Positions 585 to 42,540 of a DNA stretch of 64,000 nt are shown here, one piece after another. The position numbers were made by a program, and so were the translations under genes. Positions within the stretch are counted from its first letter, which is position 1. Every line of letters begins with the position of its first letter. Source of the DNA: Ardenticatenaceae bacterium. GTDB lineage: Bacteria > Chloroflexota > Anaerolineae > Promineifilales > Promineifilaceae. The notes beneath the pieces are model-generated. The model saw nothing but the letters and a program-made list of their open reading frames with translations. It ran no database searches and was not told the DNA's origin. The stretch lies in contig JACKBN010000020.1 of NCBI GenBank assembly GCA_020634565.1, forward strand, positions 885 to 64,884. Direction: 5' to 3'.

Positions 585-680
585 CTTCTCCTGAAAGATT
601 ATTGTTTAAGTTCTACAGATATAAAAAAGACCTGCCAGAATTTTGCTCTGGCAGGTCTGGAATTTTAGCCAAACGGCCGT

Positions 681-3600
681 TTAATTCTCATCGCTGGGTG
701 GTTGGGTGGGGGCAACGGCTTCTGTGGGCGCGATTTCGGTTGGCTCAACGGCCGTATCTTCTGCCCCATTATCTGTTTCTTCAACCGGTTCCTCACTGGC
801 GTCGTCAGCCGGTACATCCTCCTCTAGCGGTTCCTCGATCGATTCTTCATCTGGCGCGTCGATTGGTTCCTCTTCAAACGGCTCTTGCACAGGCTGTTCG
901 ATGGGTTGCGCGGGCGCAAAAATCGGCCCATATTTCAGCACGCGGTTATTGTTCGCATCCGCAATGTAGATGTTGTCCTGGTCGTCAATAAAGATGCCGT
1001 TGATCAGGTTAAAGCTGTTGACATCGGTGCCAAACTGGCCGAACTTGCCGATGTAGTTGCCCAGTTGGTCAAAAATCAGCACGCGCGGTGTTTCCGGATC
1101 CGTCACGTAAACGCGACCGCCGCTGTCAACTGCCAGGTATGGCTTGTTGTTCACCGAGCTATTGGCGGGCCAGCCTGTGTCCAGCAGCCATTCATTCACC
1201 GGAATCAAATCGGAAGTAAGCTGTTGGATACGGCCGTTCCACGTATCGGCCACGTACACAAAACCGTCATTCCCCACGGCAATGCCTACCGGCTCATAAA
1301 ACTGCCCCAGGGCCGAGCCAAACTGGTCGCCACCTGCGCCCAGTTGGCCAATGAAGTTGCCGCTCTGGTCCATCACCTGAATGCGATGATGACCGGTGTC
1401 AGTAACCAGCACAAGGCCATCGGCCGTCAGCGCCACTTCACGGGGTCCAAAGAACAGTCCCAGCCCCTGACCAGACGGATCGTCTGGCGTGTTGCCTGCC
1501 ATGCCATAGCTGCCTACAAACTGCCCATCCAGCGTAAATTTCTGCACGCGATGGTTCCAGGTGTCGGCCACATACACAAAGTTGTCGTCGATATTCAGAC
1601 CCCACGGGCCTTGCCCGTCGGCGCTAAACTGGCCACTGCCTGTGCCGGTGCTGCCGAAGCTGTCTACAAATTGGCCGTCGGCGTTGAACACCTGTACCCG
1701 CTGGTTGCCAGAATCGAGCACGTAGATACGGCCGTCGGCGCTCACCGCCACGTTGCGCGGAGCAGATAGTTGGTCATCGGCTGAGCCAGCCACGCCGCTG
1801 GGGTTGATAACCAGCGAAGGCAGTACGGAAATTTCGCCTTCTTCATAAGGCGGTTCCAGACTGCTAGCCCCCACAGCTTCCAAACCGTAATCCCAAAGGT
1901 CGGCCAGCACGTCGCGGCGGATGTAGAGGCGCAAATCGTCTCGCAATGGCCATTGGCCATCCGTCAGCGTGCCGCCAAACACCTGACTGTACTTGCTAAA
2001 ATCGCGGTAGAAGAAGATGTCCCACATGGCTTCACGCACGTTGGGATTTAACAAGCCGCGCCGCTCCTGGCCCTCTGGTCGGTTCGGGTTGCCCAGAATG
2101 GCGGCCCAATTAATGTTGCGATAATCCTCCATCGGCCACCAGAGGTAGGTGTAGGTGCGATAGGTGTAATTACTGCCCAAGATGCGGTCTACCTCATCCC
2201 AATTGCTGCGGCCCACCAGCACCACCGGAGATTCGTTCAGGGTGGGGGATGGACTTTCGCCGAAGTAGGTGCTGTTGGGATATTCACGCATGTACCAGGT
2301 GAACGGCCAGGAAACGCCGCTGCCGCCAAAGGCTACCCGAATGCTTTTGTCGCCGTTGAGCCGCATGGACAGGGTTTCGAGTTGATCCAGCACCATGCTT
2401 TTGGCTGCGGGTGCGCCGTGGGCATACACCATAAATTCGCGGGCATAATCGGCATTGGGCCAGCTGGATAAATACATGAAGCGCACGGTAAGCAGGCTCA
2501 GCAGGGTAAAGATGCTCAATACGACGAGGGGCCGGCGGAGACGGCCGTTTACCTCCTCCCGTACTTGCTGCCAGAACCAGAACACCACCGCCGCCAGTAC
2601 AATGCCGCCCAATACCTGACCCAGCTGGGTTAGATTATTGAGCTGCTGGTTGCCTAGCTGCACTTTGCCTAGCAAGACGGGTCCCAGCGCCACAAAAACG
2701 GAAATGATCAGCCCTAGCGTCAGCCCGGCAAACAGCAGCGCCTGCCGCGAGACTAGCTCGCGCCAATGAATATCTTTGAACCGCTCATTGATGTACCAGC
2801 CTGCCAGCAGCCCCATAGGAATGACAAAATGGGTGCTCAGCCACGGCATCTTTTCTCCGGCGATGCTGTAGGCTGCCCAGGTAAGCACGAGCCACCAGCT
2901 CACAAAGGCCACAAACTCGCACATAATGTCGCGGGCCAGCAGCTCCATCAGATTTGTCTCCACTCCATGGGCGCGCATAATTTGCCCCCGCCGAATGAAG
3001 AACCAGACCAAAATCGCCACGCCCAAAATGAGCAGCCCGATTAAAATGCCCGGCAGGCGGCTGATTTCCTGGCCGCTGAATACGTTATCCAGATTGAACA
3101 CCCAGTTTCCCAAACTGTAGGCAAGCAGGGCGATGAGAACGGCCGTAAGCCAGTACCCCGTCACCTGATTCAAACGCTGTTTGATTAGCCAAAAGCGAAT
3201 AGCCAGCAGCGAAAAGATCAGCGGCAAGAACTCATAGAAGGGCACCACAAAGAAGTAGTAGAAAGGCGGCTGATTGCCGCGCGCCACCTCCTGCTGCTCT
3301 AGCCAGTAGCCCAGCGAGCCAATCGTACCGCTAAACCAGCCATCCCGAATGTTGGTGAAAACGGAGGTGTACAGCACGAAGAAAATAACGTGGTAAATGA
3401 CGGCAGCAATAATCCAGCGGCGCCGATCCCACCACAGCCCGACCAAAATGGCTGCGGCCAGAGTGAAGACCAGAAAGAGTATCGTCAAAAAGAGGGAGGA
3501 ACCGACAAAATCACCCCAGCAGGTGGCGTTAAACGCGCGGCCAAAGAAAATTTGCACCGACGACATCGCCTCCTGCCCCGGCAAGAAGCAAGTTGCCATG

Positions 3601-4655
3601 GGGTTGCTGTCTTCCAGCGGTTTGCCCCCGGCAAGCACCACAAATAGCGGCGCTGCCATTGGCAAAATAAGGGTGGTAAACAGCAAAATCAGGTCAAACT
3701 CCGCGTAGTTTTTCAAAAACGGCCGAAAACGAGCCGCCATCCAAAATAAACCACCAGCCAGGGCAAAGATGCCCACAATTTCCACCCAGCCGAGCCGCTG
3801 TTCCACAATCGTGAGCGCCTCGTTGGTAGACGAAACAAAGGCATCTTCTACAGGATCGGCCGCAAAAACGCCGCTGTCTTCGGACAAAACGGGTTCTTCC
3901 ATTTGGGTCGCAAATCGCTGCCCCAGAAGCCCGCCGCTGAGCATGAGTAGCCCCAGCAGCACCAGCAGCACGGGCGAGGTGAGCCTGTCCAGATTGTTAC
4001 GCAGCCACGGGGCCATCCAAATTTGGGGCAGCAGGCGCAAAATCAAAAAGCTGCCAAAGATGGCCACGTAAATAAACGACACTTCCTTGGTGGAAAACAT
4101 GAGCGCATTACCCGCGGCAAACCACCACAAATATTTATCTTCCCGCGTCTGGAAGTAATGCCAGATGGCGATGAAAATAATCATCGCCCAGACGATCACG
4201 TAAATGTCGTGGCGAATGTAGCGTGAGTAGTAGGTGAGGTAAGGCGAAATGAGGAAGATGAAGCTGGTGGCCAGCGCGCCCACCTTGCCAAGCCAGGGCC
4301 GCAAAAAGTAGGGCATGGCTACTAAAATGATGCCAAAAATTGCCACGGGCACCCGCGCCGAAAAATCACTATCGCCTAACAGCCAGTAAAAAATGGGCGT
4401 GATGTGGAACAAAAAGGGGCCGTGCATTAGCGGCGTGTGGTTGAAACCATCCCCGATAAAAAATTGGTACGAAAATTGGGTGTGCAGGCTTTCATCATGG
4501 CTCATGACGCGGTCGCCCAGCCCCCAGAAGCGGGTCACAATGGCCACCAGCAAAATCGCGAGGTAAGCTGCTTTTTCCCAATCAATGTACAGGCTGGCCA
4601 GCAGCGGCCGGGATAGAAAATCGGTTTTCGGTTCAGGCGTTGTCAATTCACTCAT
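681..4655 (-). CDS. TIGR03663-like GT-C (PMT/ArnT-like) polytopic membrane protein fused to a six-bladed NHL beta-propeller and an acidic tail
   Basis: 1324-aa ORF. The N-terminal ~900 aa are highly hydrophobic and carry the DE (MSHDESLH) and HGP (PLMHGPFLF) motifs described for TIGR03663. Residues ~925-1245 hold six NHL-type blades (NQRVQVF, NHRVQKF, HHRIQVM, NGRIQQL, TPRVLIF, NNRVLKY). The last ~80 aa form a Glu/Asp/Pro-rich tail. Confidence 0.7.
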   Translation of the reverse strand: MSELTTPEPKTDFLSRPLLASLYIDWEKAAYLAILLVAIVTRFWGLGDRVMSHDESLHTQFSYQFFIGDGFNHTPLMHGPFLFHITPIFYWLLGDSDFSARVPVAIFGIILVAMPYFLRPWLGKVGALATSFIFLISPYLTYYSRYIRHDIYVIVWAMIIFIAIWHYFQTREDKYLWWFAAGNALMFSTKEVSFIYVAIFGSFLILRLLPQIWMAPWLRNNLDRLTSPVLLVLLGLLMLSGGLLGQRFATQMEEPVLSEDSGVFAADPVEDAFVSSTNEALTIVEQRLGWVEIVGIFALAGGLFWMAARFRPFLKNYAEFDLILLFTTLILPMAAPLFVVLAGGKPLEDSNPMATCFLPGQEAMSSVQIFFGRAFNATCWGDFVGSSLFLTILFLVFTLAAAILVGLWWDRRRWIIAAVIYHVIFFVLYTSVFTNIRDGWFSGTIGSLGYWLEQQEVARGNQPPFYYFFVVPFYEFLPLIFSLLAIRFWLIKQRLNQVTGYWLTAVLIALLAYSLGNWVFNLDNVFSGQEISRLPGILIGLLILGVAILVWFFIRRGQIMRAHGVETNLMELLARDIMCEFVAFVSWWLVLTWAAYSIAGEKMPWLSTHFVIPMGLLAGWYINERFKDIHWRELVSRQALLFAGLTLGLIISVFVALGPVLLGKVQLGNQQLNNLTQLGQVLGGIVLAAVVFWFWQQVREEVNGRLRRPLVVLSIFTLLSLLTVRFMYLSSWPNADYAREFMVYAHGAPAAKSMVLDQLETLSMRLNGDKSIRVAFGGSGVSWPFTWYMREYPNSTYFGESPSPTLNESPVVLVGRSNWDEVDRILGSNYTYRTYTYLWWPMEDYRNINWAAILGNPNRPEGQERRGLLNPNVREAMWDIFFYRDFSKYSQVFGGTLTDGQWPLRDDLRLYIRRDVLADLWDYGLEAVGASSLEPPYEEGEISVLPSLVINPSGVAGSADDQLSAPRNVAVSADGRIYVLDSGNQRVQVFNADGQFVDSFGSTGTGSGQFSADGQGPWGLNIDDNFVYVADTWNHRVQKFTLDGQFVGSYGMAGNTPDDPSGQGLGLFFGPREVALTADGLVLVTDTGHHRIQVMDQSGNFIGQLGAGGDQFGSALGQFYEPVGIAVGNDGFVYVADTWNGRIQQLTSDLIPVNEWLLDTGWPANSSVNNKPYLAVDSGGRVYVTDPETPRVLIFDQLGNYIGKFGQFGTDVNSFNLINGIFIDDQDNIYIADANNNRVLKYGPIFAPAQPIEQPVQEPFEEEPIDAPDEESIEEPLEEDVPADDASEEPVEETDNGAEDTAVEPTEIAPTEAVAPTQPPSDEN

Positions 4656-4662
4656 AATGGGT

Positions 4663-5199
4663 TCAATTTGTGTTGATAGGTACGGCCGCTACCGGTGTGG
4701 GCAGCGGAGCCGGGGTGGAGACAAAGTTGGGTTCCGGGTCGATTTGATTGGCGACGGCCGTTTCCGTCGGCATGGTTTGCGTTTCGGTGGCGGCGGGCGT
4801 GTGGGTCATGGTAGCGGTGACGGCTACCATGGTGGGTGGCGAGGGCCATAACGATGGTTGGCCACTGTTAAACCACTGCCAGCCGCCCAACAGGAGCACT
4901 AGCAGCATGGCCACCGCTGCTAACTGCCGTCCCAGCTGGCGTGGGGCAAAGCCTGGCCGGGTCAACCGCCGGCGCTGCGGTATGGTGGGCATGAGCTGTA
5001 CAAGACGGCCGTTATCAACGGCCGTTGCCTTTTGCAGCGTTTGCCTGACCAACTGCCCCACCTGCCGCTCCTGCTGCACCGCAGCCAGCAGGTCCGGGTC
5101 CTGGCTGATTTGGCGCGTTAGCAGCTCTTTTTCCGCAGCGGGCAGCAAATCAAGTACATACTCTTGCAGCAGATTTGTGCTTTTTCTGGTTTCAATCAT
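4663..5199 (-). CDS. Anti-sigma factor, single-pass membrane protein
   Basis: Lies immediately downstream of the ECF sigma gene. I prefer the start MIETRK at ATG 5199, which overlaps the sigma stop (ATGATTGA, 8-nt overlap). It has one hydrophobic helix (LAAVAMLLVLLLGGW) and a Pro/Thr-rich C-terminus. The 210-aa ORF-track start at 5295 would overlap the sigma gene by ~100 nt. Confidence 0.6.
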   Translation of the reverse strand: MIETRKSTNLLQEYVLDLLPAAEKELLTRQISQDPDLLAAVQQERQVGQLVRQTLQKATAVDNGRLVQLMPTIPQRRRLTRPGFAPRQLGRQLAAVAMLLVLLLGGWQWFNSGQPSLWPSPPTMVAVTATMTHTPAATETQTMPTETAVANQIDPEPNFVSTPAPLPTPVAAVPINTN

Positions 5200-5809
5200 G
5201 ATCAATCTGCTCCGCCAGCGCCTCACGCAAAGCGTTGTGCGCCAGCCGCATACGGGATTCGGCAGTTTTAGTGGGAACCCCCAAAATCTGGCCAATTTCC
5301 ACGTAAGTTAGCCCTTCGTAATAACGGAGAACGGCCGTTTCCCGCAGTTTGCCCGATAAATTCTGGATGGCCGTCCACACGACTTGTTGTTTTTCCGTGA
5401 GCTGCATCGTCTCGGCCGGCGTAGGCAAATCGCGATCCGGCACATCTTGGCTCATCAACTGCCCTAGTGAAAACGTGGGCAGCCATTTGCGCCGCCGTTT
5501 GTTGTGGCAGCGGCTCACGGCAATCTGGTACAGCCACGTTTTCAACGCCGATTTGGTGGCGTCATACTGCTCCAGGCGACGAAAAGCATACTCAAAGCTG
5601 TCTTGCAGGACTTCTTCGGCATCTTCCCGATTTTGCAGAAGGCTGTAACAGAGCCGGTAAATCATGCCTGCATACAGGTTATACAGCGCCACATAGGCCG
5701 TATCCTCACCCGCCAGGCAGCGCCGGATGAGCGCCTGACTTTGTTCGTCGGCGTAAGCAGGCGTTTCTGCGCCCCACGAGAGGGTGCCTTGGTCAGAAAA
5801 GGAACTCAT
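5192..5809 (-). CDS. ECF-type RNA polymerase sigma-70 family factor
   Basis: 205 aa. The region 2-like segment reads LYNLYAGMIYRLCYSLLQNREDAEEVLQDSFEYAF. The region 4 HTH reads LRETAVLRYYEGLTYVEIGQILGVPTKTAESRMRLA. Confidence 0.85.
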   Translation of the reverse strand: MSSFSDQGTLSWGAETPAYADEQSQALIRRCLAGEDTAYVALYNLYAGMIYRLCYSLLQNREDAEEVLQDSFEYAFRRLEQYDATKSALKTWLYQIAVSRCHNKRRRKWLPTFSLGQLMSQDVPDRDLPTPAETMQLTEKQQVVWTAIQNLSGKLRETAVLRYYEGLTYVEIGQILGVPTKTAESRMRLAHNALREALAEQIDHD

Positions 5810-5810
5810 G

Positions 5811-7568
5811 TTAGGGCTGTCCTGTCAATAAATCGGCCCGCACCCAGACAATAGCCCGCTCTACAGGCGTAACGGCCGTTGACTGATGAAAAAACCACCA
5901 GCGAAACGTGTCGTACAAAATGGTGGCCGATGGTTCGGTAAGTGGGATGGGCTCCAGACGACGGATGGCAAAATCGCTGCCGCTGTAGCTGACCGCCAGC
6001 GGTAACTCTGGATTGGCGTCGGTAATGATGACTTGCTGCGTGGGTGTTAGCGGCAGCGCGTTGAGCTGCTCCAGTCGGGGATACGCTTTCAGGTACCAGT
6101 TCAGCGCTGGCACATCCAGCCGGGTGCCAATTTGCAGCTGCGTATCAGAATTGGCCAGCTGGCGCGATAGGTCGCGCACGGTGGTATCCAGTTCACGCAT
6201 GGCAAAATCGGTGCCGCTGCTGACCCAGCGCTCGCGCGGATCGTTGGCTCCTTCCTGAGCCAGCCACCAGCCCGTGCCCCATTGGTAAAAAATGAAAAAG
6301 CCTAAAATGGCCAGCAAGACGCCTTGGGGAACGGCCGTTGCATCTTCCGAAGCGGTAAAATAGAGCACCAGCCCCACAAACAAAATCGCAAGCAAAATGA
6401 CCATCAAATAAATGGTGCTTTCTGGTGGATTTACCTGGGCTACACGTCCTAGACGAGCCAGATTTACAAAAATCACAAACGAACCAGCCAGGCTGACACC
6501 CCCAGCAATGCCGCTGAACCAATCCCACCGGCGACGCCAGGCCGCGTTGACCAAAATGCCTGCCAGTAAGGCGGTGGGCAGGGTGAGCAGCAGCCCATTG
6601 CTCATGAACGCTCGCTGGAGCAGCAGCAAAATCAGGCTGCCGCTGAACCAGTAAACGGCAAACAGCGCCAGCGGTTCACTGCGGACGATGGCCCAAATCA
6701 GGCCAAAAACCACCAAAATGACAAGGGCTGGCTCGTACCGCACAAAAGCGAGCAGCGGATCGAGCGTGCGTGCGCCGCCGAACTGCTGGAACCATTCGCC
6801 TGCGAGTCTGGCAGAACCACCCAACCCATTGGGCAGCAGCAAAAAGAAGGTGCTTAGCAGCAAAAACACGACGATGCCAACGGCCGTTCCCTTGCGCCAG
6901 TTGGTTTCGGTTGGTTTTACGTGCCAGCCTTCTACAAATAGCGAAAGCCCCAGTCGCGAATGGACAAACCAGGCTAGCAGCAGCGTCACCAGGCCGCTGT
7001 AAAACAGGGCTGAACTGCTCAATCCGAGGCCCAGCGCGGCAAAAAGCGTGTACAGCCAGCGCACAGCGGCCGTTTCCTGGTAGCGAATAAAGGCGATGAG
7101 CATCAGCAGCAGGGCAAAGAGGGCAATGCTGTCGCCGCCAACCGTGCGGGAGGCAATGGTATTGAGGGGAGAGATGGCCAGGAGAACGGCCGTTACCAAC
7201 GCGCCTTGGGTGCCCAAACGATGGCGCAGCAGCCAGGGCAGGCCGATGAGACCCAGCCCAAACAAGGCTGGAATCAAGCGCATGACCCCATCGCCAAAGC
7301 CAAACACCTGTGTGAGCCAGCTGGTGAGGCTGAAATAGGCAGGGCTTCCTGCGCTGAGCATGACCGCCTCCGGCTGCCAGAAGCGCCACACTTCCAGCGC
7401 TTGCAGCGCTTCAGTATCGGACAAGGGTAGATAACCAAGATTTGCCAGGCGCAAAATCGCGGCTGCCAGCAAGATAAGGCCCAGCAAGCCATCCGCCAGC
7501 GTCAGGCGGCTTAACCAACCGCTAATCGGCTGGCGATGCACAACTTGGGGCGTGGGAAATATCTCCAA
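5811..7568 (-). CDS. Divergent GT-C-fold (PMT_2/ArnT-like) polytopic membrane protein
   Basis: 585 aa with more than 10 hydrophobic segments. The N-terminal arrangement (LRLANLGYLPLSDTEAL) resembles the loop-1 acidic motif of GT39/GT83 enzymes. A hydrophilic C-terminal domain of ~150 aa follows. The stop is 1 nt from the sigma gene start. Confidence 0.5.
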   Translation of the reverse strand: MEIFPTPQVVHRQPISGWLSRLTLADGLLGLILLAAAILRLANLGYLPLSDTEALQALEVWRFWQPEAVMLSAGSPAYFSLTSWLTQVFGFGDGVMRLIPALFGLGLIGLPWLLRHRLGTQGALVTAVLLAISPLNTIASRTVGGDSIALFALLLMLIAFIRYQETAAVRWLYTLFAALGLGLSSSALFYSGLVTLLLAWFVHSRLGLSLFVEGWHVKPTETNWRKGTAVGIVVFLLLSTFFLLLPNGLGGSARLAGEWFQQFGGARTLDPLLAFVRYEPALVILVVFGLIWAIVRSEPLALFAVYWFSGSLILLLLQRAFMSNGLLLTLPTALLAGILVNAAWRRRWDWFSGIAGGVSLAGSFVIFVNLARLGRVAQVNPPESTIYLMVILLAILFVGLVLYFTASEDATAVPQGVLLAILGFFIFYQWGTGWWLAQEGANDPRERWVSSGTDFAMRELDTTVRDLSRQLANSDTQLQIGTRLDVPALNWYLKAYPRLEQLNALPLTPTQQVIITDANPELPLAVSYSGSDFAIRRLEPIPLTEPSATILYDTFRWWFFHQSTAVTPVERAIVWVRADLLTGQP

Positions 7569-7620
7569 TCTCTACTCTCCGATTTTCAATAATCAGTGTT
7601 CAGGCCAATTACTGACTTAC
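7561..7620. repeat. Short spacer built from family A/B repeat words
   Basis: CTCCAATCTCTACTCTCC...TAATCAGTG...AATTACTGACTTACTG lies between the GT-C-like gene start and the YYY-1 stop. Confidence 0.5.
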
Positions 7621-10289
7621 TGCGTACTGTTCTGCCAACGATAGATGGTAACAGAGCCGTTCTGGTAGGCAACTTCGAGCTGCTCGTTGAACTTGCTGGC
7701 ACCGGGCAAACGGCCGTTCACGCCGTAAGTATCCCGCTCCAGCCCACCAACGTAAATGTAAGCCACATCATAGGCATCGAGCACATTGGCAATGTTGTTG
7801 TTGTCCCAGTTGGGCAGCGTGTAAATTTCTCGCACAATGGGATCGCGCTCGGAAGGTTCAGGCGTGCTGTAGCCGCGCCACTGGTATTCATGCCCGGCCC
7901 AACCTAGCAGGGTGGGAATGCCAGTGCTAGCCGAGATACGGCCGTACGCCGAATATTGACCGCCCACTGCCTCAACAATTGTGGGTGTGCCATCTACATT
8001 GTCACGCAGCCACATGATTGCCGCGTACTCATCTGGGTTGAAACTGGCTGTCTGTGCCAAGCCATTTAGCGTAGGTGGTTGCCGATTGACGGAGTCAACC
8101 GGCCCGCGAAACTCGATAGCACGAGTTTGGACGGCAAGAATAGGAAAAAGCAAGGTTCCTATGAAAACGGCCGTATACACCACGGTCACGCCCGCAGGTA
8201 CCAACTTGTGACCGCTTTCTCGCGCCACTAGCCACAAGTAAGAGAGACTAAATAACCCCGCAACGCCAAACATCACCCACGTCTGGTAATAGAATTTAAA
8301 AACTGTGTTTAGCCGCACGCCAAAATTATCGCGCAAATAGACAAACTCTGGCCCAAGAGTGAGCAGAGCGCCAGTAGCGATGAGGAGGAGGATAAATGGG
8401 AGCGGCGAGGGGCTGACCTTTGCCGCAACCGGCACGCTGATTGGTTCTACCGCTTCCTCAGCGAAATTGTCCGCATCTTCCGGCTGGGTTTCTGTTGCGG
8501 TAGCTTCGTCTTCTGCCCCAAATAGTCCTTGCCAGGCCATCACGACCAGCCCCAGCAAAGCTGCCAGCATGAGCGTGACGCCGGGGATGGCCACTTTGGC
8601 CTGCACAATGGCGGGAAGAATGGCAAATACGGCCGTAGCACCCCAGCCAAACGCCACATTTCCTTCTGGACGGGGTGCCAGAGTGAGACCCAGTTCATTA
8701 GCCAAGCCTACAATTCTGCCTGCCCCGTCGGCGCTGCTGGCAACAATTAGCCCCAGCAGCACCGCCAGCACAAACAAACCAAGAATGAGCGAAACGGCCG
8801 TTATCACCCCCGCCTTCCACTGCTTAAACTTGTAGCGACTGACCAAACTCAACACCAATGTCCAAATACTCAGCAGCGGTAGACCAAAAATAATCAAAAA
8901 TTGCGGCAGACGTGTGGGGCGTACCAGCGTAGGCAGCAAATAAGGCGCGCCCGCCTGCGAGCGAAAGCCCAAATAAAATGGCAGGTAAAGAAAAATCGCG
9001 GGAATAACCAGCAAAATGGCCAGCCATATCGCCTCGGTAAGCCACTGGTTGCGCCAGCCAAAGCGTCGCCAGCGGTTCAGTATAAACGCCCCCAGCACCA
9101 CAAATAGATGAACCAGCACATCCCACGTGTTGAGGAAGGACAATCCGCCCAGAATCAGCACGGTAATTGCCCAAAGCGGCTTGTTTGGTACAAGAGATTG
9201 GAGATTAGAGATTATAGATTGATTGCTAGCCTTAATCTCCAATCTGAGGTCTCCGGTCTCCTTTTCTTGTAGCCACCACAAGAACGCCACCGCCAGACTC
9301 AAAAAGGCAAATGGCAGTGCCATGACATGGGGGTGCATATCGCCCAAAATAAAGCTAAAGCCGGGAAATTCTGCAATGGGTTCTAGCCCCTCGATCACTT
9401 GGCCAGACAAGGAATATTCATTAATGACGCGGGAACTGCGCCACCACCATAAATATCGTGGACTTTCTATATCAACTGCTGGTCCATTAATGTTGCGTAC
9501 GTCGAGCCATGCCCAAAATTCGGTGGAACCTATGCCATTCCCGTGTAACGTTTCCAGGATGACCTGTAGGTTTCCCGCTATAGGTAAAGCAATCGCCGCC
9601 ATCAGTCCCAAAGTCAGCGCCAGACGAGACGCGGCCTGTTTGAGGTGTTGCCCGTAACTGAGCACAAGATTATAAACAAGCCCAAATGCACCCACGCCCG
9701 TACCTGCAAGTAGCCAGGCAATGCCTAAATTAAAGGCAACTGGTTCAGAAACGGCCGCTAATCGAGCCAGCACCGAGGTCATCACATAACCAAAATAGTA
9801 GTAGCTAATGGCATAGCCAGAGAGCCATGGATCGACCGGAGGGAAGACTGGGCTGCGGCTGGCTGCGTTGAGAAAAGCAAACTCCATTGGTTTTTCGGTT
9901 CCGACGATGGCCGGGTTTTGAGCGCGCACCCAAACCCACAGGCCAAACAGCACCGCAAAAATCAGCTCGGTGAGCAGAATGTGCCGCCAACTGTCGCTGA
10001 GCCAGGTGCGCAGTTCGGTGCCTGTGTGGCGATATGCCCAGTAAGAAAGGCCCACCACCAGCGCCACCGCCAGCAAAATTCCGCCCAGATTATTTTGCAA
10101 AAAGCCCAGGCTGCCCAGCATCCAGAAAAGGTAGCTCACCAGCAGCAGCGACAGCATCTTGACAAACGCATAGCCGCGATCAGGCAGCTTTTTGAAGAGG
10201 GTGAAGGCCAGGGGGGTAACGGCCGTTCCCAACAGCAACAGCACAGCCCACCATCGAATCGCCGCAAAAATGTCTTCCCAAGCTAGCAT
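7617..10289 (-). CDS. DUF2298 / TIGR03662 'Chlor_Arch_YYY' membrane protein (copy 1)
   Basis: 890 aa and strongly hydrophobic. The signature reads VDPWLSGYAISYYYFGYV (YYYxG motif). Confidence 0.75.
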   Translation of the reverse strand: MLAWEDIFAAIRWWAVLLLLGTAVTPLAFTLFKKLPDRGYAFVKMLSLLLVSYLFWMLGSLGFLQNNLGGILLAVALVVGLSYWAYRHTGTELRTWLSDSWRHILLTELIFAVLFGLWVWVRAQNPAIVGTEKPMEFAFLNAASRSPVFPPVDPWLSGYAISYYYFGYVMTSVLARLAAVSEPVAFNLGIAWLLAGTGVGAFGLVYNLVLSYGQHLKQAASRLALTLGLMAAIALPIAGNLQVILETLHGNGIGSTEFWAWLDVRNINGPAVDIESPRYLWWWRSSRVINEYSLSGQVIEGLEPIAEFPGFSFILGDMHPHVMALPFAFLSLAVAFLWWLQEKETGDLRLEIKASNQSIISNLQSLVPNKPLWAITVLILGGLSFLNTWDVLVHLFVVLGAFILNRWRRFGWRNQWLTEAIWLAILLVIPAIFLYLPFYLGFRSQAGAPYLLPTLVRPTRLPQFLIIFGLPLLSIWTLVLSLVSRYKFKQWKAGVITAVSLILGLFVLAVLLGLIVASSADGAGRIVGLANELGLTLAPRPEGNVAFGWGATAVFAILPAIVQAKVAIPGVTLMLAALLGLVVMAWQGLFGAEDEATATETQPEDADNFAEEAVEPISVPVAAKVSPSPLPFILLLIATGALLTLGPEFVYLRDNFGVRLNTVFKFYYQTWVMFGVAGLFSLSYLWLVARESGHKLVPAGVTVVYTAVFIGTLLFPILAVQTRAIEFRGPVDSVNRQPPTLNGLAQTASFNPDEYAAIMWLRDNVDGTPTIVEAVGGQYSAYGRISASTGIPTLLGWAGHEYQWRGYSTPEPSERDPIVREIYTLPNWDNNNIANVLDAYDVAYIYVGGLERDTYGVNGRLPGASKFNEQLEVAYQNGSVTIYRWQNSTQ
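9194..9262. repeat. Family A heptamer (GGAGATT/AATCTCC) inverted block inside the YYY-1 coding sequence
   Basis: A 13-bp perfect inverted repeat pairs 9195-9207 with 9233-9245, flanked by further GAGATT/TCTCC units. It is translated as EIKASNQSIISNLQSL. Confidence 0.85.
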
Positions 10290-10297
10290 AGAATTAC

Positions 10298-13200
10298 CTA
10301 ATTACTCAACGAAATCGCACTGCCATCCAAAACTTTATAAATACTTGTCCCAGCGTTGCGATAAACTTCCTCTAAAACGCCCATTTCAACCATCTGGTCA
10401 AACTTGTTCAATCCGGCGGGTGTGTACAGCACCCACTCCAACTGGCCAACGTAGATGTAGCTCACGTCATACTTGGCCAGGATGTTTTGCGCTTCTGGCA
10501 CGTTGGTGCTGTTGTACAGCGTAGCCACATCCCGCAGCCGCTGGTCGATAAACTGGCCGGGCAAAATGGCCCGCTGCTGCCGCTGATGGCCACTCCAGCC
10601 AATGATGCCGGGCAGGCCCGTGTACATCGCTACGCGGTTGGTGATGGAGCGATAGTAGTTGTCGCTGTACCCCTCGGCCACCACGGGTGAGCCAGGGATG
10701 TTTTGCTGCATCCACTTCAATGCTTCGTAATCGAAGGAGAGCGGTACGTTACCCCCGCCAGCCGCTCCCTGGCTTTCAAAATAGTTGGCGTAAGGCATGA
10801 AGGCCATACCGTCTAGCGTCACGGGCGCTTCCTGGCTGAGGCGCACTTCCCACTTGGCCTTGGTGGCCAAAATTGGGTAGAGGGCCGCGGCAGCAACGAG
10901 GACACCCAGCACTGCCAGCCACGTTTTGCGTCTGATCTCTTTCTTTTGGATAGAAGGCCAGGCCCAAACGGCCGTTACGCCCCCCACCACGCTTAAAATC
11001 AGCCACACCTGCATGTAAAACTTGAAGACGGTGTTCATGCGCCCGACCGTGTTTTCCACCACAAAAAACTCGACAAACAGGGTGATGGCCAACGCCGAGG
11101 CGATCAAAATGAGCACGATGCGGCGGGCGGTGGGCAAATTGGGCTGCAAACCAAGCAGTCCGGCTATCACCGTGAGCGTTAGCACAACGGGAGCAATCCA
11201 ATAACCCATGCGGAACAAAATCAGCAGCAGGATGATGTACAGGCCCAGCGCCAGGAGCATTGGCGCTGCCGCCGGTTCCCATTGCCGCAAACCATCTTGC
11301 GTCCAGCTTTTGGTCCAGGCGCGAAACTCTCGGGCCAAATGGGTCAGAACGAAAAACAGGAACAGGCCGTAGATGACCAGATAATTTCCCAAATAGCTGG
11401 TTGACCCGTCCCAAGGGGCAAGTGAGTTGAAACCAGCGCCGAAGTTGCTGCTAAACGGCCAAAAGAGCAAGAAGGCCAGGCCGATGAGTACGGCCGTTTT
11501 CAGCCCAATCTGGCCCAAAAGTTGCAGGTTAAAGGTACGGCCGTTCTCCTCAATCACCGCATAAACCACCGCCAACACGCCAATCACGGCGTAGGTCGGC
11601 AAATCCCAAATGTTGGTCGCTTGCAGCACGCCAATGGCCAGCGCCCCCACAAACCAGATGAGCGCCGTTTCCCACCAGGCTGTACCTACAGCATCCGATT
11701 TGTTTTTGGCTTTTAGCGCCAGCGAAATGGCCCAGGCCAGCGCCAGCATTGTCAGCGGCAGGGCAATCATGTGGGCGTGCAAATCGCCGTAGAGGAAGGT
11801 GAAGAAAGGAAATTCAGTGATGGGGCCAGCTTCGCCTTCGTTAAAGTTAAGGGCACGGGAGGCGAGAAAGAACCAGTCGCCGGGATAAATCGGCGCGGGT
11901 GTGCCGCTCAGCACTTTGAAACCGCCGTCCAGGGTGCGAACAGCCGTTCCCACCAGCGGAATGTTCTCTTCCAGCGTCGGATTGCCCGCCTTGTACCACG
12001 CATCGGTTAGCACCCCCACCTCCGCCAGGTTGCCCAGGAGGATGGCCAGGGTGATGGCGATCAAGCCAGCGTAAATACTTGTTCTTTGACCTGGAGACAG
12101 GGTGATAAGGTGACGGGGTGACGGTTCATTCACCTTGTCACCTTGTCTCCGGGTCACCTTGTCACTAGAAGACACTAAATCATACGCTATGGAGAACACC
12201 GCCATGCCCGTAAAGCTGAACAGCATGGACAAATTCAGGTTGTAGGCAATGGTCGGGACGATGCCTAAAATTTTGGTTAGCACGCCAGCATAGACGAAGC
12301 CGTAGTAGTAGTAATTGATGTAGCCGCCCGCAAACCAGGGATCGTAAGGAGGGAAGCTGGTGGATTTGAGAACGGCCGTAAAATAAGTCAGGTCCATCGG
12401 TTTTTCGCCGCCCCAGATCACGTCCCAGACGTCCGGGTTGCGCACGCGGATGAGGATGGCAATCAGGTACAGCGCCACCGCAATGAGTTCCACCACGCCA
12501 ATAAACGCCAGATTCTCCCGCACCCAGGTGCGAATTTCGCCACCGCGCCGGATGAGCACCAGCCCGCTCAAAATCACGATGATCAGCAGGGCCAGCAGGT
12601 GCGTGCCGCGCGAATTTTGGAACAGCTGCATGCTGGCCGTCAGCCAGACAAAGTAAGAGATCAGCAAAATGGAGAGAATGCGCGAGATGATGTAGCCTCG
12701 GCTGGGCAGCCAGCGGAAGATGGCAAAGGTGAGCGGAAACGTAAGCAGGCCCAACGCAATAACCGCCAGCCACCAAACGGCCGCTGCCAGCCCCGAATTC
12801 TGCGATAGTGCGCCATCCGGGTTAAAGATGTTGCTAAAGGTGCCATTGGCCCGCTGGGTTGCCGCGGCGGTTTCCGACAGCATCAGCCCATTCACCGCTT
12901 CTGTCGCCTGGCCGGGATTCATAAACACCGCCTGGCTCAAATCCACTTCGCCCAAAATAGTGGCCGTGTTTTCCCGACTGTACGCCTCGGTTTTGGCAAA
13001 AATCCAGACCGGCGGATGGTCGTAGACGCTAAACGCTTCTTCAGCAGCCAGATCGCCCGGCGGCGGCCAGCCAATCTCTGGCATTTCACCCCAGCCTACT
13101 TGCCCGGTGGTGTCGCTGATGTACAGCGGCCCGATTTGCAGCGGCGCGTGAAATTCAGCCACCAAGTCAAAACCCAGCTCGCCGTTGAACAGCGCTTCGT

Positions 13201-13741
13201 AGTAGCGGGTGGTCATAGGGTAGGTGAGCGGCAGGCGGGGCAGCGACCAGATGGCGCGCTGGCTGCTCAACACCACGTAATCGGCTTCGTCGAGCCAGGC
13301 TACCATCTCTTCCCGCTTTTCCGGGCCGTCGGGATTGGTGATGGGGCGCTGTCCGCCAGTGATTTCGGTGAAATGTGAACCGTAGGCAGAACGGCCGTCT
13401 ACGTCAAACGGTAAAATGCCGTCCCAATGCTCATTCATGAGCAAGCTGGTTTGGGCGCGCACGGTTGTGTTCCCGGCAGTGAGTTCCAGCATGAGTTGTT
13501 GCGGCGTGTTGGCGGGAACGGCCGTATCTGCCAAATCTAGCAGGTAGCTTGCTTCCTCTTCCGTCACCACCAGATCAGTGGTTTCGCTGGAGCCGTTGAT
13601 CAGACCCGCCCGTATGCTAATCTCCTGGCTTTGCCCGGTGCGCAGCCCTGCTGGATCGCTGGGGATGAACAGTTTATTGAGGCGAACGGCCGTTAGCGTA
13701 CCGTCTTCAGGCAATGCCGTCAGCAAAAGAGGGGTTGCCAC
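10298..13741 (-). CDS. DUF2298 / TIGR03662 'Chlor_Arch_YYY' membrane protein (copy 2) with an N-terminal ~330-aa soluble domain
   Basis: 1147 aa. The signature reads [19 protein letters not shown]. The GTG start is taken from the ORF track and no ATG lies nearby. The gene is in the same frame as the upstream frameshifted gene but separated from it by TGA and TAG. Confidence 0.7.
12093..12165. repeat. Family C octamer (CAAGGTGA/TCACCTTG) inverted block inside the YYY-2 coding sequence
   Basis: 12093-12113 pairs with 12130-12150 at 19 of 21 positions, and an extra TCACCTTGTCAC unit follows. It is translated as [26 protein letters not shown]. Confidence 0.85.
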
Positions 13742-13762
13742 CTACTTGAAAATCGTACCCTT

Positions 13763-15366
13763 TCAGGGCAGCGTCAGCTCTTTGGTTTCGCCGTTGGCTT
13801 CATAAATGAGGGTTGCGCCCGTGGGAATATTCTCAAACATCCACTTGGAGGCAGCAATGCGGGTAACCGGCTCCCGGTAAATCTGCACGAAGGCATTGGC
13901 CCACAAAAAGCTGGGAATCACAACCAGGGCAATCAGGCCAGCGGCCAGGGCTTGTTTCAGTGCGCGCCGCTGCTCGCTCTGCCGCGCGCGCTGCCAGATG
14001 GCCCACAGCGCCCAGCCACCCAGCAAAAAGAGGGTGGGTAAATCGGCAAAAAGTAGCGGATTGATTTGACCCAGCGGGTAGCCATGAACAAAAAGTAGAG
14101 CAGGCTCCAGCTAACGGGGATGGCGTGGGCCAGCCAATCGGGCCAGGCGCGCACGATGCGCCACAGCGCCCAAAACAGTCCCGCCCAGGCAGTCAATCCA
14201 GCGGCGATGCCCATGCCATACAGCACCATGTTGGTAAACGGGAAAACAATGGCATCGCGATCGGTCCATTGCAGCGCGGGTGGAAGGAAGCTTCCGGCTT
14301 TGCTGCTGCTGGATTTCATCCATGTTGCTGCGCCACTGCGGGTTGAAGCCCATGAGGGAACGCAGCCAGACCGAGAGTGTGCCCGGTTCCTCACCCGTTT
14401 GGGTGATGATTTCATTGCGGGCAATGGTGGCATCGGCGAAGGCGTATGGCTGGGCCAGGCGGAACACCACCAGCGAGACGGTGGCGGCGACCAATACGCC
14501 CAAAAAGACGCGCTGAAAATTGAGCGCGCCAATGCTGGTATGGCGGATGCTTTGCCAGGTGTGCCCCGGCGTACCAGCCAGGCCACGGCCGAAATGTTGA
14601 TGATCACCGCCAGCGGCGCGACGTTGATGCGGGAAGCCACCGCCAAGCCTAAACTGAGGCCAAACAAAAGCCACCAGTGGATTTGCCACTTCGCTTTGTC
14701 ATCGCCAAATCCTGCGGCGCGTACGGCTGTATACACGCCCAACGCCGTAAAAAAGGCAGCCCAATTGTCCATTGTGAAAAAGTGGGATTGTTGAATGGCC
14801 ATAACGGCCGTTCCCTGAAAAAATGCCGCCAGTAAGCCCGCCTGCCAACTATACAGTCGGCGGCCAATCAGATAGGTGAGCAAAACAGTGAACAAATCAA
14901 CGAGGGCTGAGAGGAAACGGCCGCTTTGCTGCAGGCCATAAAAGCTGTTGTAGGTTTGGGCGCACAGGTCCGGGAAGTTGTTGCAGGCGGAAGCGGCCCA
15001 TTCGGCAAAGTAGCGCGTAAACGTCATGGGGAAGTTGCCGTAGACGTAGAATCCCTTGTCCACATTGTACGGATTCAGCGGCGACTCGGAGGTGCGCATG
15101 TATTCAAAGAAGCTGTCGGCTGGCTGCAAACGGCTGGCGACGTCCATCAGGAAAAATTCGTCGGGGTGTAAGAAGTTGCCTTCGCCCCACGTTAGTCCGG
15201 TGAAGCGAAAATAAGCCGCCATGGCCAGGATGAGTAGCAAAATGAGGACGCTGAGTGATTCCCAGGAAAGGCGTTGTTTGGTTTCTGCTGGAGATTCTAT
15301 TGTTTCAGGAACGGCCGTTTCGGTTTCCAGTTCCTGCTTCTCTTCTGCCACAGTGGTCATAAGCAA
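13763..15366 (-). pseudogene. GT39-like (phospholipid-carrier-dependent glycosyltransferase-like) membrane protein gene interrupted by three frameshifts
   Basis: Plausible protein sequence switches between ORFs. ORF 13957..15366 reads well from 15366 to ~14575 (FLHPDEFFL, YGNFPM motifs). ORF 14111..14689 takes over from ~14575 to ~14290 (HTWQSIRHTSIGALNF...NMDEIQQQQ). The first frame resumes from ~14290 to ~14035 (ALQWTDRDAIVFPFTNMVLYGMG...RYFLPIYP). ORF 13763..14026 covers the rest (LLGGWALWAIWQR...). Each switch lies at a short homopolymer run. Confidence 0.6.
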
Positions 15367-15590
15367 TCATTTTGACTTTGGTGGATTGGTTTTCGCAAGC
15401 TTCTTACTGTTATACACACTCACCCTTTCATTTTTCTTACAAATTGATGAGTACCTGCCCAAAATAAAGTGTATGCCAGCACAAGGGCTGAATTTTAGCG
15501 GAAAGTGGCATCTTTTCCAACGCGCGCCCACGCTTGAGAAGGGTTTTCGGCAGCAAGAAGCTGAAAATCGCTACCTGCTCTGGTACCCGT

Positions 15591-15899
15591 CTAGCGATTC
15601 AGCACCAGCAGTAAAATGACGGCAAACAATGCCCAGAATCCTAGCTGCGCCACAGAAAAAAAGAGCATCCAGATGAGGCGCTTCATGCCGCTAAAAATGG
15701 GCGTTTGGCGAAAGACTAAAAAGATGCCGATTCCCGCGACCAACAGCTGTAAGAGAACCAGCAGGAATACGGCCGTTTCCGTCGTTGCAATGGACGCTTT
15801 TTCAAGGGCCACCGCTGCGGTGATAATGAGCAAACCGGAAAAGATAACGGTTAAGGCCCAGGTAACGGCCGTATAAATCGCGACCTTTTTTGTTGACAT
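15591..15899 (-). CDS. Small hypothetical membrane protein (three hydrophobic helices)
   Basis: I prefer the internal start MSTKKVAIYTAVTW (ATG 15899). The 168-aa ORF-track start overlaps the upstream gene by ~175 nt. Confidence 0.45.
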   Translation of the reverse strand: MSTKKVAIYTAVTWALTVIFSGLLIITAAVALEKASIATTETAVFLLVLLQLLVAGIGIFLVFRQTPIFSGMKRLIWMLFFSVAQLGFWALFAVILLLVLNR

Positions 15900-15922
15900 A
15901 AATAATCTTTTACTTTTCCTTT

Positions 15923-16744
15923 TTATTGAGGAGGTGGCCAAATTTGGCGTAAGTAGGGTTCGATGCCGCGCTCTGGCTGCCAGTTTTGCGGATAGCCCAG
16001 CGACACTTCCTCGAAGCGCACGCCGTCCCGAAGGTGTGTGCCGCGAATGTGCAGATGGCCGTAAACAACGGCCGTTATCGGAAAACGCCTGTGCCAATCT
16101 TCCGTCAGTTTACTGCCGCACCAGAGGGAAAAGCGGGGAATGAGCCGCAAATTCACCAGGTCATAGCGCAGGGGGTAATGGTTGATGAGGATGATGCTGC
16201 CGTGAACGGCCGTTTCCGTGAGCCTGTCCTCTGTATAGCGGCAGCGCGCCTGGCACCACGCCTGTCGTGACGGGTAAGGGTCAGGGTGCAGGATGATTTC
16301 ATCCGTGGCCACCACACCAGCCGCTTCGGCCCAGGCCAGCGCCTCCTCGTCGGGGATTTCGTCCGGGCGAAAGCTGTAATCATAAAGCGTAAAGGTAGGG
16401 GCAATAAAAAGGGGCGATTCGCTATCGGGCCAGGGCACAAATGGATCTTCTGGCGTGTGCACCCCAAATTCCCGGCAAATTTGCACCAGCTGAAAATATT
16501 TGCCGAGGCCGCGCTTGCTTTCTTGATCAGAAGGGATGGTCCAGAGATCGTGGTTGCCGGGCGTCCAGAAAATCCTGCCGAAGCGATGACTCAGCAAATC
16601 CATTGCGCGCCGAAAATCACGAATCTTTTCGGCCACATCACCAGCAACAATGAGCCAATCGTCTGGATAGGCAGCCATCCGGCTGAGCGCCGCCCAATTT
16701 TCTGCGTGATTCAGGTGCAGGTCGCTAATGGCGAGTAAACGCAT
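15923..16744 (-). CDS. Metallophosphoesterase (calcineurin-like)
   Basis: 273 aa. Motifs are MRLLAISDLHLNH, LIVAGDV, TPGNHDLW and VYGHLH. Confidence 0.8.
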   Translation of the reverse strand: MRLLAISDLHLNHAENWAALSRMAAYPDDWLIVAGDVAEKIRDFRRAMDLLSHRFGRIFWTPGNHDLWTIPSDQESKRGLGKYFQLVQICREFGVHTPEDPFVPWPDSESPLFIAPTFTLYDYSFRPDEIPDEEALAWAEAAGVVATDEIILHPDPYPSRQAWCQARCRYTEDRLTETAVHGSIILINHYPLRYDLVNLRLIPRFSLWCGSKLTEDWHRRFPITAVVYGHLHIRGTHLRDGVRFEEVSLGYPQNWQPERGIEPYLRQIWPPPQ

Positions 16745-16754
16745 GACCTGGGGT

Positions 16755-16830
16755 CAGTAATGGGTAAGCCAGTAATCAGTGAGCCGATTTAACGCATACG
16801 GAACACGGTTACCGATTCACTGGTTACTGG
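16755..16830. repeat. Family B (GTAATCAGTGA-type) hairpin element in the phosphoesterase/crp spacer
   Basis: CCAGTAATCAGTGA (16769-16782) pairs with TCACTGGTTACTGG (16817-16830) at 13 of 14 positions. Confidence 0.75.
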
Positions 16831-17544: not shown

Positions 17545-17617
17545 AACATCTCTTCCTGTGGGTGCGTAAACTCTTCTTGTGTTGCCCTAGCCAAATTTAG
17601 GGATGCTGCTGGCGAAG

Positions 17618-19733: not shown

Positions 19734-19878
19734 GCTACGGTTTCCACTGTGTGGGATTGGTGCGTTTAGAATGAAGACAATAATACCAGAATAATGCGCA
19801 GGTGCATCTATACGGTACTTAAGGGCAAACGAAGTACGCTATGGAGAGGTGGAATTTGCCAGTGGGATCAGGAGGGAA

Positions 19879-42534: not shown

Positions 42535-42540
42535 GGTCTT

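Follow-up and report, generated by a model that had tools for sequence, protein, structure and literature searches.

Possible envelope glycan assembly by a conserved Chloroflexota gene array encoding PMT_2-, DUF2298- and Agl23-type membrane proteins with an embedded ECF sigma/anti-sigma pair

What do very large polytopic membrane proteins do when they are encoded together with an extracytoplasmic function (ECF) sigma factor and an anti-sigma factor? The question is raised by an operon-like array at one end of the 64,000-nucleotide stretch analysed here (the window; contig JACKBN010000020.1 of the Ardenticatenaceae bacterium assembly GCA_020634565.1, positions 885 to 64,884). Once assembly errors in its open reading frames (ORFs) are corrected, the array consists of six genes, all co-directional on the minus strand. 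Cautiously, we favour the reading that this operon encodes an extracytoplasmic glycan-assembly or glycosylation system which uses lipid-linked sugars and is under ECF control. A first-pass annotation of the same DNA had suggested an envelope glycosylation or polymer-assembly machine, and the invariant HPDE, HDE and HGP motifs of the membrane proteins, the Agl23 homology of the 585-aa protein and the glycan genes at related, more distant loci are consistent with that suggestion.

Glycosyltransferases of the C fold (GT-C) and ECF modules are known as kinds. What is new is a gene order resolved across the class, with a PMT_2-YYY fusion of two modules in it; the identification, by profile comparison, of the 585-aa protein as an Agl23 paralogue; an ECF insertion, fixed in one clade and recurrent elsewhere, with its Thr/Pro-tailed anti-sigma factor; and the extended glycan-locus context. 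The features of the array are as follows.

10298..15360, minus strand: PMT_2-DUF2298 fusion gene, about 1689 aa (from intact orthologues and restored bases)
7617..10289, minus strand: YYY-1, 890 aa, DUF2298/TIGR03662 (Pfam and TIGR03662 profiles)
5811..7568, minus strand: GT-C-type PMT_2 protein, 585 aa, polytopic (PMT_2 profile, hhalign, BLASTP)
5192..5809, minus strand: ECF (group 4) sigma-70 factor, 205 aa (Sigma70_r2, Sigma70_r4, TIGR02937)
4663..5199, minus strand: anti-sigma factor, 178 aa, single-pass (NF052375, orthologue comparison)
681..4655, minus strand: Agl23-family (TIGR03663) and NHL protein, 1324 aa (TIGR03663 and NHL profiles)
15409..15418, minus strand: promoter-like extended -10 element, TGTGTATAAC, in a block kept in the window and five close relatives
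628..658, minus strand: intrinsic terminator, a 13-bp GC-rich hairpin followed by a U-run (scan and folding)

Six genes and the broken fusion gene

The first-pass annotation had described seven co-directional genes with gaps of -8 to 48 nt. Shared direction and gaps were correct, and the count is reduced to six: what had been listed as a frameshifted GT39-like gene followed by a separate YYY-2 gene of 1147 aa is one fusion gene of 1689 aa, and the frameshift is an artefact. In the window this gene is dispersed over the ORFs 15366/15360-13957, 14026-13763 and 13741-10298 (1147 aa), the first two of which match PMT_2/PMT. A contig of GCA_020634525.1, 98.5% identical to window positions 7550-20282 (12.7 kb) and encoding an identical 890-aa YYY-1 protein, carries a single 1689-aa PMT_2+DUF2298 ORF at the place where the window shows two 'genes', and every relative examined has a single fusion ORF as well (1689-1712 aa in the annotated close relatives). 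Compared with this contig, the window has seven one-base deletions in the fusion gene, at about 13728, 13730, 13765, 14035, 14281, 14295 and 14563, each inside a homopolymer run; one of them produces the apparent stop between the two 'genes'. At all seven sites the extra base is present in contigs from four independent activated-sludge or wastewater metagenome runs, some of which are otherwise identical to the window's own allele. Since neither these contigs nor the 98.5%-identical assembly contain the deletions, the frameshifts and the in-frame stop are assembly errors of the window, and the array therefore has six genes.

Taken by themselves, seven homopolymer deletions and an in-frame stop would speak for a genuine pseudogene, or for a gene that is phase-variable via homopolymer slippage, in an array decaying in this strain. 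This explanation was discarded and we consider it extremely improbable: each deletion is contradicted by four metagenome runs, contigs of the same allele included, the nearly identical public assembly is intact, 86% of the substitutions between the two alleles are synonymous, and at least one further disputed one-base indel occurs in the window, in dnaE. The record is thereby corrected, in that the 'pseudogene' of the window is an artefact and the true product a two-module fusion protein.

Comparison with GCA_020634525.1 further showed that about 184 of the 190 differences lie inside the fusion gene (about 3.4% divergence), with six differences in about 7.6 kb of its flanks. The 86% figure corresponds to 150 of 174 substitutions, 144 of them at third codon positions, so the fusion gene is under purifying selection. 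This pattern suggests a diverged allele, most simply acquired by recombination. The metagenome contigs are fragmented and polymorphic at the fusion gene, indicating strain microdiversity at a surface-related gene, and this polymorphism may account for the poor assembly consensus. Elsewhere in the window, the plus-strand gene dnaE, for DNA polymerase III alpha, appears as two ORFs that overlap, 25911-27500 and 27415-29121, with a disputed one-base indel at about 27421, where the metagenome contigs of two runs lack one base. This split is probably another one-base assembly error, and the window assembly is probably indel-prone.

From the fusion gene to the Agl23-NHL gene the intergenic gaps are 8, 48, 1, -8 and 7 nt. 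A 230-nt intergenic region lies 5' of the fusion gene, with the extended -10 element about 50 nt upstream of the fusion ATG and a second sigma-70-like site, found by consensus scan, at 15520-15492. At the other end, the terminator begins 23 nt past the stop codon of the 1324-aa gene; its hairpin has a folding energy of -27.6 kcal/mol (z -5.4; 0 of 200 shuffles fold as well), and the next gene, an SDR gene, starts at 581. Internal terminator-like matches were short, none of them strong, and over the whole 17 kb their excess was not clear (33 versus 23.9 ± 5.2 in shuffles). Tight gaps, one conserved promoter-like element upstream and one strong terminator downstream fit a single transcription unit, as predicted from the anatomy, and agree with the operon-like arrangement first described. 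Just upstream of the promoter region, a conserved 102-aa membrane protein with about three transmembrane (TM) segments is encoded at 15591-15899 (minus strand); it had no significant family match, and unnamed genes for 102- and 103-aa proteins occupy the same place in loci L001 and L003.

Family membership and invariant motifs of the membrane proteins

Profile searches used hidden Markov models (HMMs) with cut-offs of 126.25 bits for TIGR03663, 26.1 for PF13231 (PMT_2), 22.7 for PF02366 (PMT), 300.25 for TIGR03662 and 27.8 for PF10060 (DUF2298). The family assignments of the first-pass annotation held for the 585-aa GT-C-like protein, for the 1324-aa TIGR03663-NHL protein and for both DUF2298/YYY modules, with scores given below. 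Three modules exceeded the PMT_2 cut-off, namely the N-terminal module of the fusion protein (35-38 bits), the 585-aa protein (39 bits) and the Agl23-NHL protein (33 bits). By sequence, these three PMT_2-type modules belong to a recognised GT-C family and the two DUF2298 modules do not.

The fusion protein begins with its PMT_2-type GT-C module (residues ~1-540), continues with a soluble middle domain without family match (residues ~541-860, about 320 aa) and ends with the DUF2298/TIGR03662 module and a C-terminal soluble domain (residues ~860-1689). Directly after the first TM segment (TM1) of the N-terminal module, the motif HPDE is found in 48 of 48 orthologues. The broken 469-aa ORF of the window also matched PF02366 (33.5 bits); for the intact 1689-aa orthologue a match to PMT_2 but none to PMT was reported, and the DUF2298-fused architecture is unlike known Pmt proteins. 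The N-terminal module is related to the 585-aa protein (hhalign probability 96.5%), and both scored below the TIGR03663 cut-off, with 20.9 and 66.3 bits, respectively, which makes them relatives of that family and not members. For the 585-aa protein the Agl23 homology is visible by BLASTP (28% identity, E 3e-12) and is very clear against an Agl23-like profile (hhalign probability 100%, E 6e-49, 514 columns). The DE dipeptide and the HGP tripeptide are the N-terminal invariants named in the TIGR03663 family description; here the Glu alone of the DE dyad remains, and E53-A54 is found in 52 of 52 orthologues. By these profile comparisons the 585-aa protein is a divergent Agl23/TIGR03663 paralogue.

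The 1324-aa protein is above the TIGR03663 cut-off (203.8 bits). Its membrane part (residues ~1-900, window 1956-4655) contains the HDE and HGP motifs, with H53-D54-E55 and H78-G79 in all 31 orthologues and P80 in 30 of them. It is followed by an NHL beta-propeller (residues ~950-1245, window 921-1808; 138 bits, 5 repeats), for which the closest relative in the PDB was the NHL domain of TRIM71 (5e-53), with the PknD sensor domain at 6e-10, and by an acidic, Pro-rich tail. An acidic residue after TM1, in a predicted loop whose sidedness is assumed, is thus common to all PMT_2-type modules, as HPDE (48/48), HDE (31/31) or E53 (52/52).

In NCBIfam, TIGR03663 now bears the name Agl23. PMC11182771 describes Agl23 of Haloarcula hispanica as a putative hexose-phosphodolichol flippase that acts in N- and O-glycan synthesis and, citing Lu et al. 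2020 (doi 10.1111/mmi.14577), states that the purified protein moves lipid-linked oligosaccharide across proteoliposomes. The description of the whole array as essentially uncharacterised in function hence stands for DUF2298 and not for TIGR03663, for which an activity on lipid-linked sugars is reported (PMC11182771). The likeness of our proteins to the Haloarcula protein was established via the family profile. Shared features are the membership of the 1324-aa protein with its HDE and HGP motifs, the clear but divergent homology of the 585-aa protein, and a polytopic PMT_2-like character from which, by analogy, handling of polyprenyl-phosphate-linked sugars would be expected. The differences are a bacterial host, a 1324-aa protein about three times longer, with insertions of about 300 aa, an NHL propeller and an acidic tail, and the occurrence of two diverged copies alongside DUF2298 and ECF sigma genes in one operon.

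Seen more broadly, the array proteins resemble the GT-C enzymes that use lipid-phosphate donors (Pmt/GT39, ArnT, AglB/PglB, Emb/Aft) in that they share a Pfam family with relatives of Pmt and ArnT, carry an invariant acidic motif right after TM1 in the PMT_2-type modules, and are large and polytopic with predicted extracytoplasmic soluble domains; several paralogues in one operon are also found in embCAB. They differ in that no significant match of the array proteins to solved GT-C structures was obtained in profile searches, and in that DUF2298 has neither the long first external loop nor detectable similarity to the PMT_2 profiles.

Both DUF2298 modules were assigned with high scores: 507.6 bits for YYY-1 and 480.3 bits for the C-terminal module of the fusion protein with TIGR03662, and 369.8 and 350 bits, respectively, with PF10060. 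The two are paralogous (31% identity, E 5e-43). YYY-1 ends in a soluble domain and has about 16-17 hydrophobic segments. In an alignment of 80 orthologues spanning 35-100% identity, E132, M135, D153, W155 and D317-x-H-P-H are present in all sequences, position 136 is Glu or Asp throughout, and the I-S-Y-Y-Y-F-G-Y motif is invariant except for its third Tyr, Y165 (77/80). The fusion modules keep the YYY triplet and the Gly of N-Y-Y-Y-[YF]-G in 53 of 53 sequences. A catalytic role in DUF2298 for Asp37 of the LPDRGY loop was also considered and rejected, since this Asp occurs in only 66 of 80 and 34 of 53 sequences and is replaced by Ser in the fusion module of the window. In the PDB, profile searches found no solved structure related to DUF2298 by sequence.

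The AlphaFold2 (AF2) model of YYY-1 (pLDDT 76.8, pTM 0.83) gave, at full length, the GT-C enzyme AglB (7e9s) as top PDB match in Foldseek (E 2e-3, probability 1.00), followed by AftA (probability 0.66-0.8), the TM-scores of the GT-C matches being 0.27-0.35. DUF2298 is fused to or next to a PMT_2 module in every locus compared. The invariant E/D/H set looks more like a metal-dependent active site than like a transporter. We therefore regard DUF2298 as a probable extracytoplasmic enzyme, of unproven GT-C membership. The family is large: among the matches listed for two short peptide patterns in species-representative genomes, 589 of 600 stretches encode a relative, and more than 6,000 DUF2298 proteins were found at E <= 1e-10 among the candidates examined. 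The literature searched for DUF2298, TIGR03662, TIGR03663 and PF10060 yielded incidental mentions only.

Gene order across Chloroflexota and the ECF pair

For comparison, four loci obtained by exact-protein look-up were combined with 80 species-representative loci from GTDB genomes, the latter all from Chloroflexota or its Anaerolineae/Ardenticatenia-type lineages, and the window proteins were searched against the six-frame ORFs of each locus. The near clade is of Promineifilaceae/Ardenticatenaceae type (YYY-1 48-84% identical; the nearest named relative is Candidatus Leptofilum, at 84%), and the distant Anaerolineae-type lineages are 35-41% identical. The arrangement first described from a single genome extends far beyond it. 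The core, in the order fusion, YYY and GT-C gene, is complete in 41 of 45 evaluable Anaerolineae-type loci (15/15 near, 26/30 distant), and the Agl23-NHL gene follows it in all 16 near loci and in 11 of 26 distant ones.

Many distant loci carry further co-directional genes upstream: another PMT_2 gene in 28, a VanZ-GT4 gene in 19, a methyltransferase gene in 17 (in the single representative that was annotated, as a fusion with a PMT_2 domain), a gene for an LPG_synthase_TM protein in 10 and one for a nucleoside diphosphate (NDP)-sugar dehydratase/epimerase in 7; examples of this upstream set are L019, L021, L037 (486-5789) and L079 (2-5365). Judged by gene content, such a context would be expected of a glycan pathway. 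The lineage of the window has, instead, genes for a metallophosphoesterase, a Crp-type regulator, a lactamase_B protein and an AlaX-like protein upstream, and it has either lost the glycan set or keeps it elsewhere in the genome. In several relatives, transposase genes (DDE_Tnp_1, DDE_5) and an N6_N4 DNA methyltransferase gene with a partner ORF are inserted between the cluster genes (L002 at 3467-4597 and 15800-17146, L004/L005 at 8248-10014), with gene order and frames undisturbed.

According to the TIGRFAM descriptions, TIGR03662 (Chlor_Arch_YYY) and TIGR03663 co-occur as neighbouring families. The present locus agrees with these descriptions in the adjacency of both families in a Chloroflexota genome, in the YYYxG, DE and HGP motifs and in the multiple copies per genome. 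It differs from mere co-occurrence by a fixed, class-wide order of PMT_2-YYY fusion, YYY, short Agl23-like and Agl23-NHL proteins and, in one clade, by the inserted ECF sigma/anti-sigma pair; neither this fixed order nor the ECF insertion was found in those descriptions or in the literature searched.

The ECF assignment of the sigma factor was confirmed by matches to Sigma70_r2 (54.6 bits), Sigma70_r4 (36.1 bits) and TIGR02937 (84.5 bits, cut-off 42.9); the protein consists of regions 2 and 4 only and had no equivalog-level match, the best being SigW with 102 versus 209 bits. Its start codon lies 1 nt past the stop of the 585-aa gene and there is no intergenic space before it, so the window leaves no room for a promoter of its own at this place. 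The anti-sigma ATG overlaps the sigma stop by 8 nt. The assignment of this second protein is supported too, with a weak HMM match (NF052375, 33 bits). It is predicted to comprise an N-terminal anti-sigma domain, one TM helix and an extracytoplasmic tail of about 70 aa, which contains 34-44% Pro+Ser+Thr and shows AVTATxTxTP... and TPAPLPTPVAA motifs conserved across orthologues.

The HxxxCxxC motif is present in the anti-sigma orthologues L012-L026 and in the distant L038, L042, L043, L055 and L084. The anti-sigma domain of the window has neither Cys nor His and lacks the ZAS zinc motif; read by eye against one HxxxCxxC orthologue, three zinc ligand positions are occupied by Q, D and L, and its two nearest relatives of the same type also have no Cys in this domain. 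With HxxxCxxC in the orthologues and no Cys or His here, the window protein is therefore a derived, zinc-less member of a ZAS lineage. In L002, L004, L006, L008 and L009 the anti-sigma ORFs comprise only 132-145 aa, seemingly without the first helices of the anti-sigma domain, which might be due to a different start, to degeneration or to a problem of annotation or assembly.

In 15 of the 16 near-clade, species-level loci the sigma gene directly follows the 585-aa gene (L014 has no sigma gene), and this position of the pair persists among loci whose proteins share as little as about 50% identity. The sigma/anti-sigma insertion is hence conserved in the Promineifilaceae-type clade. Five distant loci also have a sigma gene followed by that of a ZAS anti-sigma factor with one TM segment and a Pro/Thr-rich tail, in the same slot (L042, L043), between the fusion and YYY-1 genes (L038, L055) or upstream of the fusion gene (L084). 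Such recurrence is better explained by a functional link than by chance.

Modules composed of an ECF sigma factor and a single-pass ZAS anti-sigma factor, such as SigW-RsiW and those of the SigE type, occur within envelope gene clusters. The pair described here corresponds to them in the coupling of a two-domain sigma factor (r2 and r4) with a single-pass anti-sigma factor, with co-transcription predicted from the gaps, and in the HxxxCxxC motif of the orthologues. In contrast to these modules, the anti-sigma factor of the window has no zinc ligands, its external part is a short conserved Thr/Pro-rich tail and not a folded sensor domain, and the pair, flanked in mid-operon by genes for glycosylation-type membrane proteins, has no intergenic promoter to itself. 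In L002, L003, L006, L007 and L008 an insert of about 70-120 nt with palindromic arms, GGAACACAGAG ... CTCTGTGTTCC, separates the 585-aa gene from the sigma gene (spacer aligned to window ~5809-5811). The window does not have this insert, which resembles a small repeat or hairpin element more than a promoter. A GGAAC motif in this spacer of the relatives was accordingly dismissed as a promoter candidate, being an arm of the ~100-nt palindromic insert.

Proposed function and its alternatives

Starting from gene structure, family membership, motif conservation, synteny and operon-like anatomy as observed above, we infer donor, acceptor, DUF2298 catalysis and sigma targets as follows. Sugars would be loaded onto polyprenyl phosphate in the cytoplasm, and the Agl23-like proteins would translocate the lipid-linked sugars or hand them over. 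Transfer of the sugars to an envelope acceptor on the outer side of the membrane would then fall to the PMT_2-type modules, through their invariant acidic loop motifs, and probably also to the YYY modules, through their invariant E/D/H constellation. Either a surface protein or a polysaccharide of the wall or sheath could serve as acceptor, held by the NHL propeller, which would face outward, and by the other soluble domains. The anti-sigma factor would retain the ECF sigma factor until an envelope signal removes the anti-sigma factor; the freed sigma factor would adjust envelope gene expression, possibly including this operon. In the Promineifilaceae-type clade, the ECF pair would in this way couple the glycan system to an envelope signal.

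A number of observations weigh against envelope glycan assembly under ECF control. A search for RNA runs containing the sequence found none. Across the window, no gene for a donor-synthesising GT2, a flippase or sugar-nucleotide synthesis was found linked to the operon; the sole GT2 belongs to a carotenoid cluster about 36 kb from it. As for DUF2298, the AglB match of YYY-1 has a TM-score of 0.29, and the AF2 model of residues 1-469 gave no GT-C match in Foldseek. hhalign comparison of DUF2298 with the three PMT_2-type profiles reached probabilities of 1-52%, in C-terminal TM regions only and not significant, no Pfam GT-C family was found in 36 DUF2298 members at E <= 5, and the loop between TM1 and TM2 has about 8 residues and is Lys/Arg-rich, unlike the first external loop of GT-C proteins. 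The inclusion of DUF2298 in the GT-C set by the first-pass annotation is, with non-significant profile comparisons and fold matches at low TM-score, not established. On the regulatory side, an enumerative search upstream of the fusion gene in 17 loci found no ECF-like bipartite promoter; the only block above shuffles, GTAAG...TGTGTATAA in close relatives (6 loci versus a maximum of 4), resembles an extended -10 of the housekeeping type. The sigma pair is moreover absent from most distant loci that keep the core. That the sigma factor is 'dedicated' to the operon, as first stated, is accordingly a proposal from linkage, with no ECF-type promoter found beside it.

These points give room to two partial alternatives. 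One is that the DUF2298 'YYY' proteins are not glycosyltransferases but transporters, flippases, polymerase- or ligase-like proteins or scaffolds beside the PMT_2/Agl23-type enzymes. The non-significant profile comparisons, the missing GT-C Pfam matches and PDB relatives, and the N-terminal half model, which matched transporters only and weakly (MATE, probability <= 0.2), would all fit with this, yet E132, D153 and D317xHPH lie in loops and look catalytic or metal-binding, the top full-length fold match is a GT-C enzyme, and a PMT_2 module is always fused or adjacent; we rate it as rather unlikely, though worth keeping in view. The other alternative treats the ECF pair as a passenger, present for historical reasons, that would sense general envelope stress and control genes elsewhere. 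Its absence from most distant core-keeping loci and from L014 of the near clade, the lack of a detected ECF-like promoter upstream of the operon or of the sigma gene, and the fact that insertion sequences and a methyltransferase gene enter the same cluster without consequence can be cited in its favour. Set against this are the constant position of the pair in 15 of the 16 species-level near-clade loci, with protein identities as low as about 50%, the linkage of pairs of like type to the cluster at three other places in distant lineages, and the translational coupling to the neighbours (gaps of 1, -8 and 7 nt), which leave the passenger explanation doubtful.

Two further versions narrow the favoured explanation and are not opposed to it; they differ in the acceptor. 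In a polysaccharide version, the GT-C-type enzymes would extend or branch an extracytoplasmic wall or sheath polysaccharide or a lipoglycan from lipid-phosphate donors, as the mycobacterial Emb and Aft enzymes do. This is conceivable but not probable in our view: several large paralogous membrane enzymes in one operon recall embCAB and aft, the Foldseek matches of the YYY model include AftA, the distant loci add GT4, NDP-sugar dehydratase, methyltransferase and extra PMT_2 proteins, and the hosts are filamentous, while no relation to the Emb/Aft families was found at the sequence level and the structural match is weak. The protein version, O-glycosylation, would have the PMT_2-type modules work like Pmt, with transfer of hexose from polyprenyl phosphate to Ser/Thr of secreted, S-layer or sheath proteins and binding of the protein substrate by the NHL propeller. 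NHL propellers usually bind proteins or ligands, and Thr/Pro-rich sequence, as in the conserved external tail of the cluster's own anti-sigma factor, is of the kind modified by Pmt enzymes. The PF02366 match of the broken N-terminal ORF, the invariant DE dyad after TM1 and the dual service of Haloarcula Agl23 to N- and O-glycan synthesis (PMC11182771) point the same way. We nevertheless consider this version unlikely, and slightly less credible than the polysaccharide version: the intact fusion orthologue scores with PMT_2 only, five large modules exceed the need of a single-sugar O-mannosylation step, the GT4, dehydratase and methyltransferase of the extended loci suggest a more complex glycan, and no candidate substrate protein is encoded nearby.

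One more speculative connection may be drawn within the glycan-assembly reading. The Thr/Pro tail of the anti-sigma factor could be a built-in reporter substrate of the co-encoded glycosylation machinery, so that glycosylation status is sensed by the ECF system. Glycosylated, or bound by the NHL propeller, the tail would resist proteolysis and the sigma factor would stay sequestered; with a drop in lipid-linked sugar supply or enzyme capacity the bare tail would be cleaved, sigma released and expression raised. We consider this a long shot. If true, the loop would be homeostatic, with glycosylation status itself as the ECF signal. Also speculative is the idea that DUF2298 represents a new, sequence-orphan class of extracytoplasmic glycan-processing enzyme.

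The hosts are filamentous Chloroflexota of the Promineifilaceae type that are abundant in activated sludge, where their surface properties affect floc structure, bulking and foaming; envelope glycans of these organisms are thus of practical relevance. The fixed order with PMT_2/Agl23-type proteins gives DUF2298 a testable context, envelope glycan assembly from lipid-linked sugars, and a concrete handle on this family in abundant wastewater filaments is the main value of the locus.

Other gene groups of the window were also annotated. The carotenoid cluster mentioned above (49428-57230, minus strand) comprises genes for two phytoene-desaturase-like oxidases, the GT2, a PlsY-like acyltransferase, Caroten_synth, lycopene cyclase and phytoene synthase, and its product is probably a glycosylated or acylated carotenoid. 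Unrelated to the operon are tsaD and selA at 22148-24763 (minus strand), the latter encoding selenocysteine synthase, which implies selenoprotein use, and a two-component system beside a MacB/FtsX-ABC-HlyD efflux set at 40727-47961 (minus strand).

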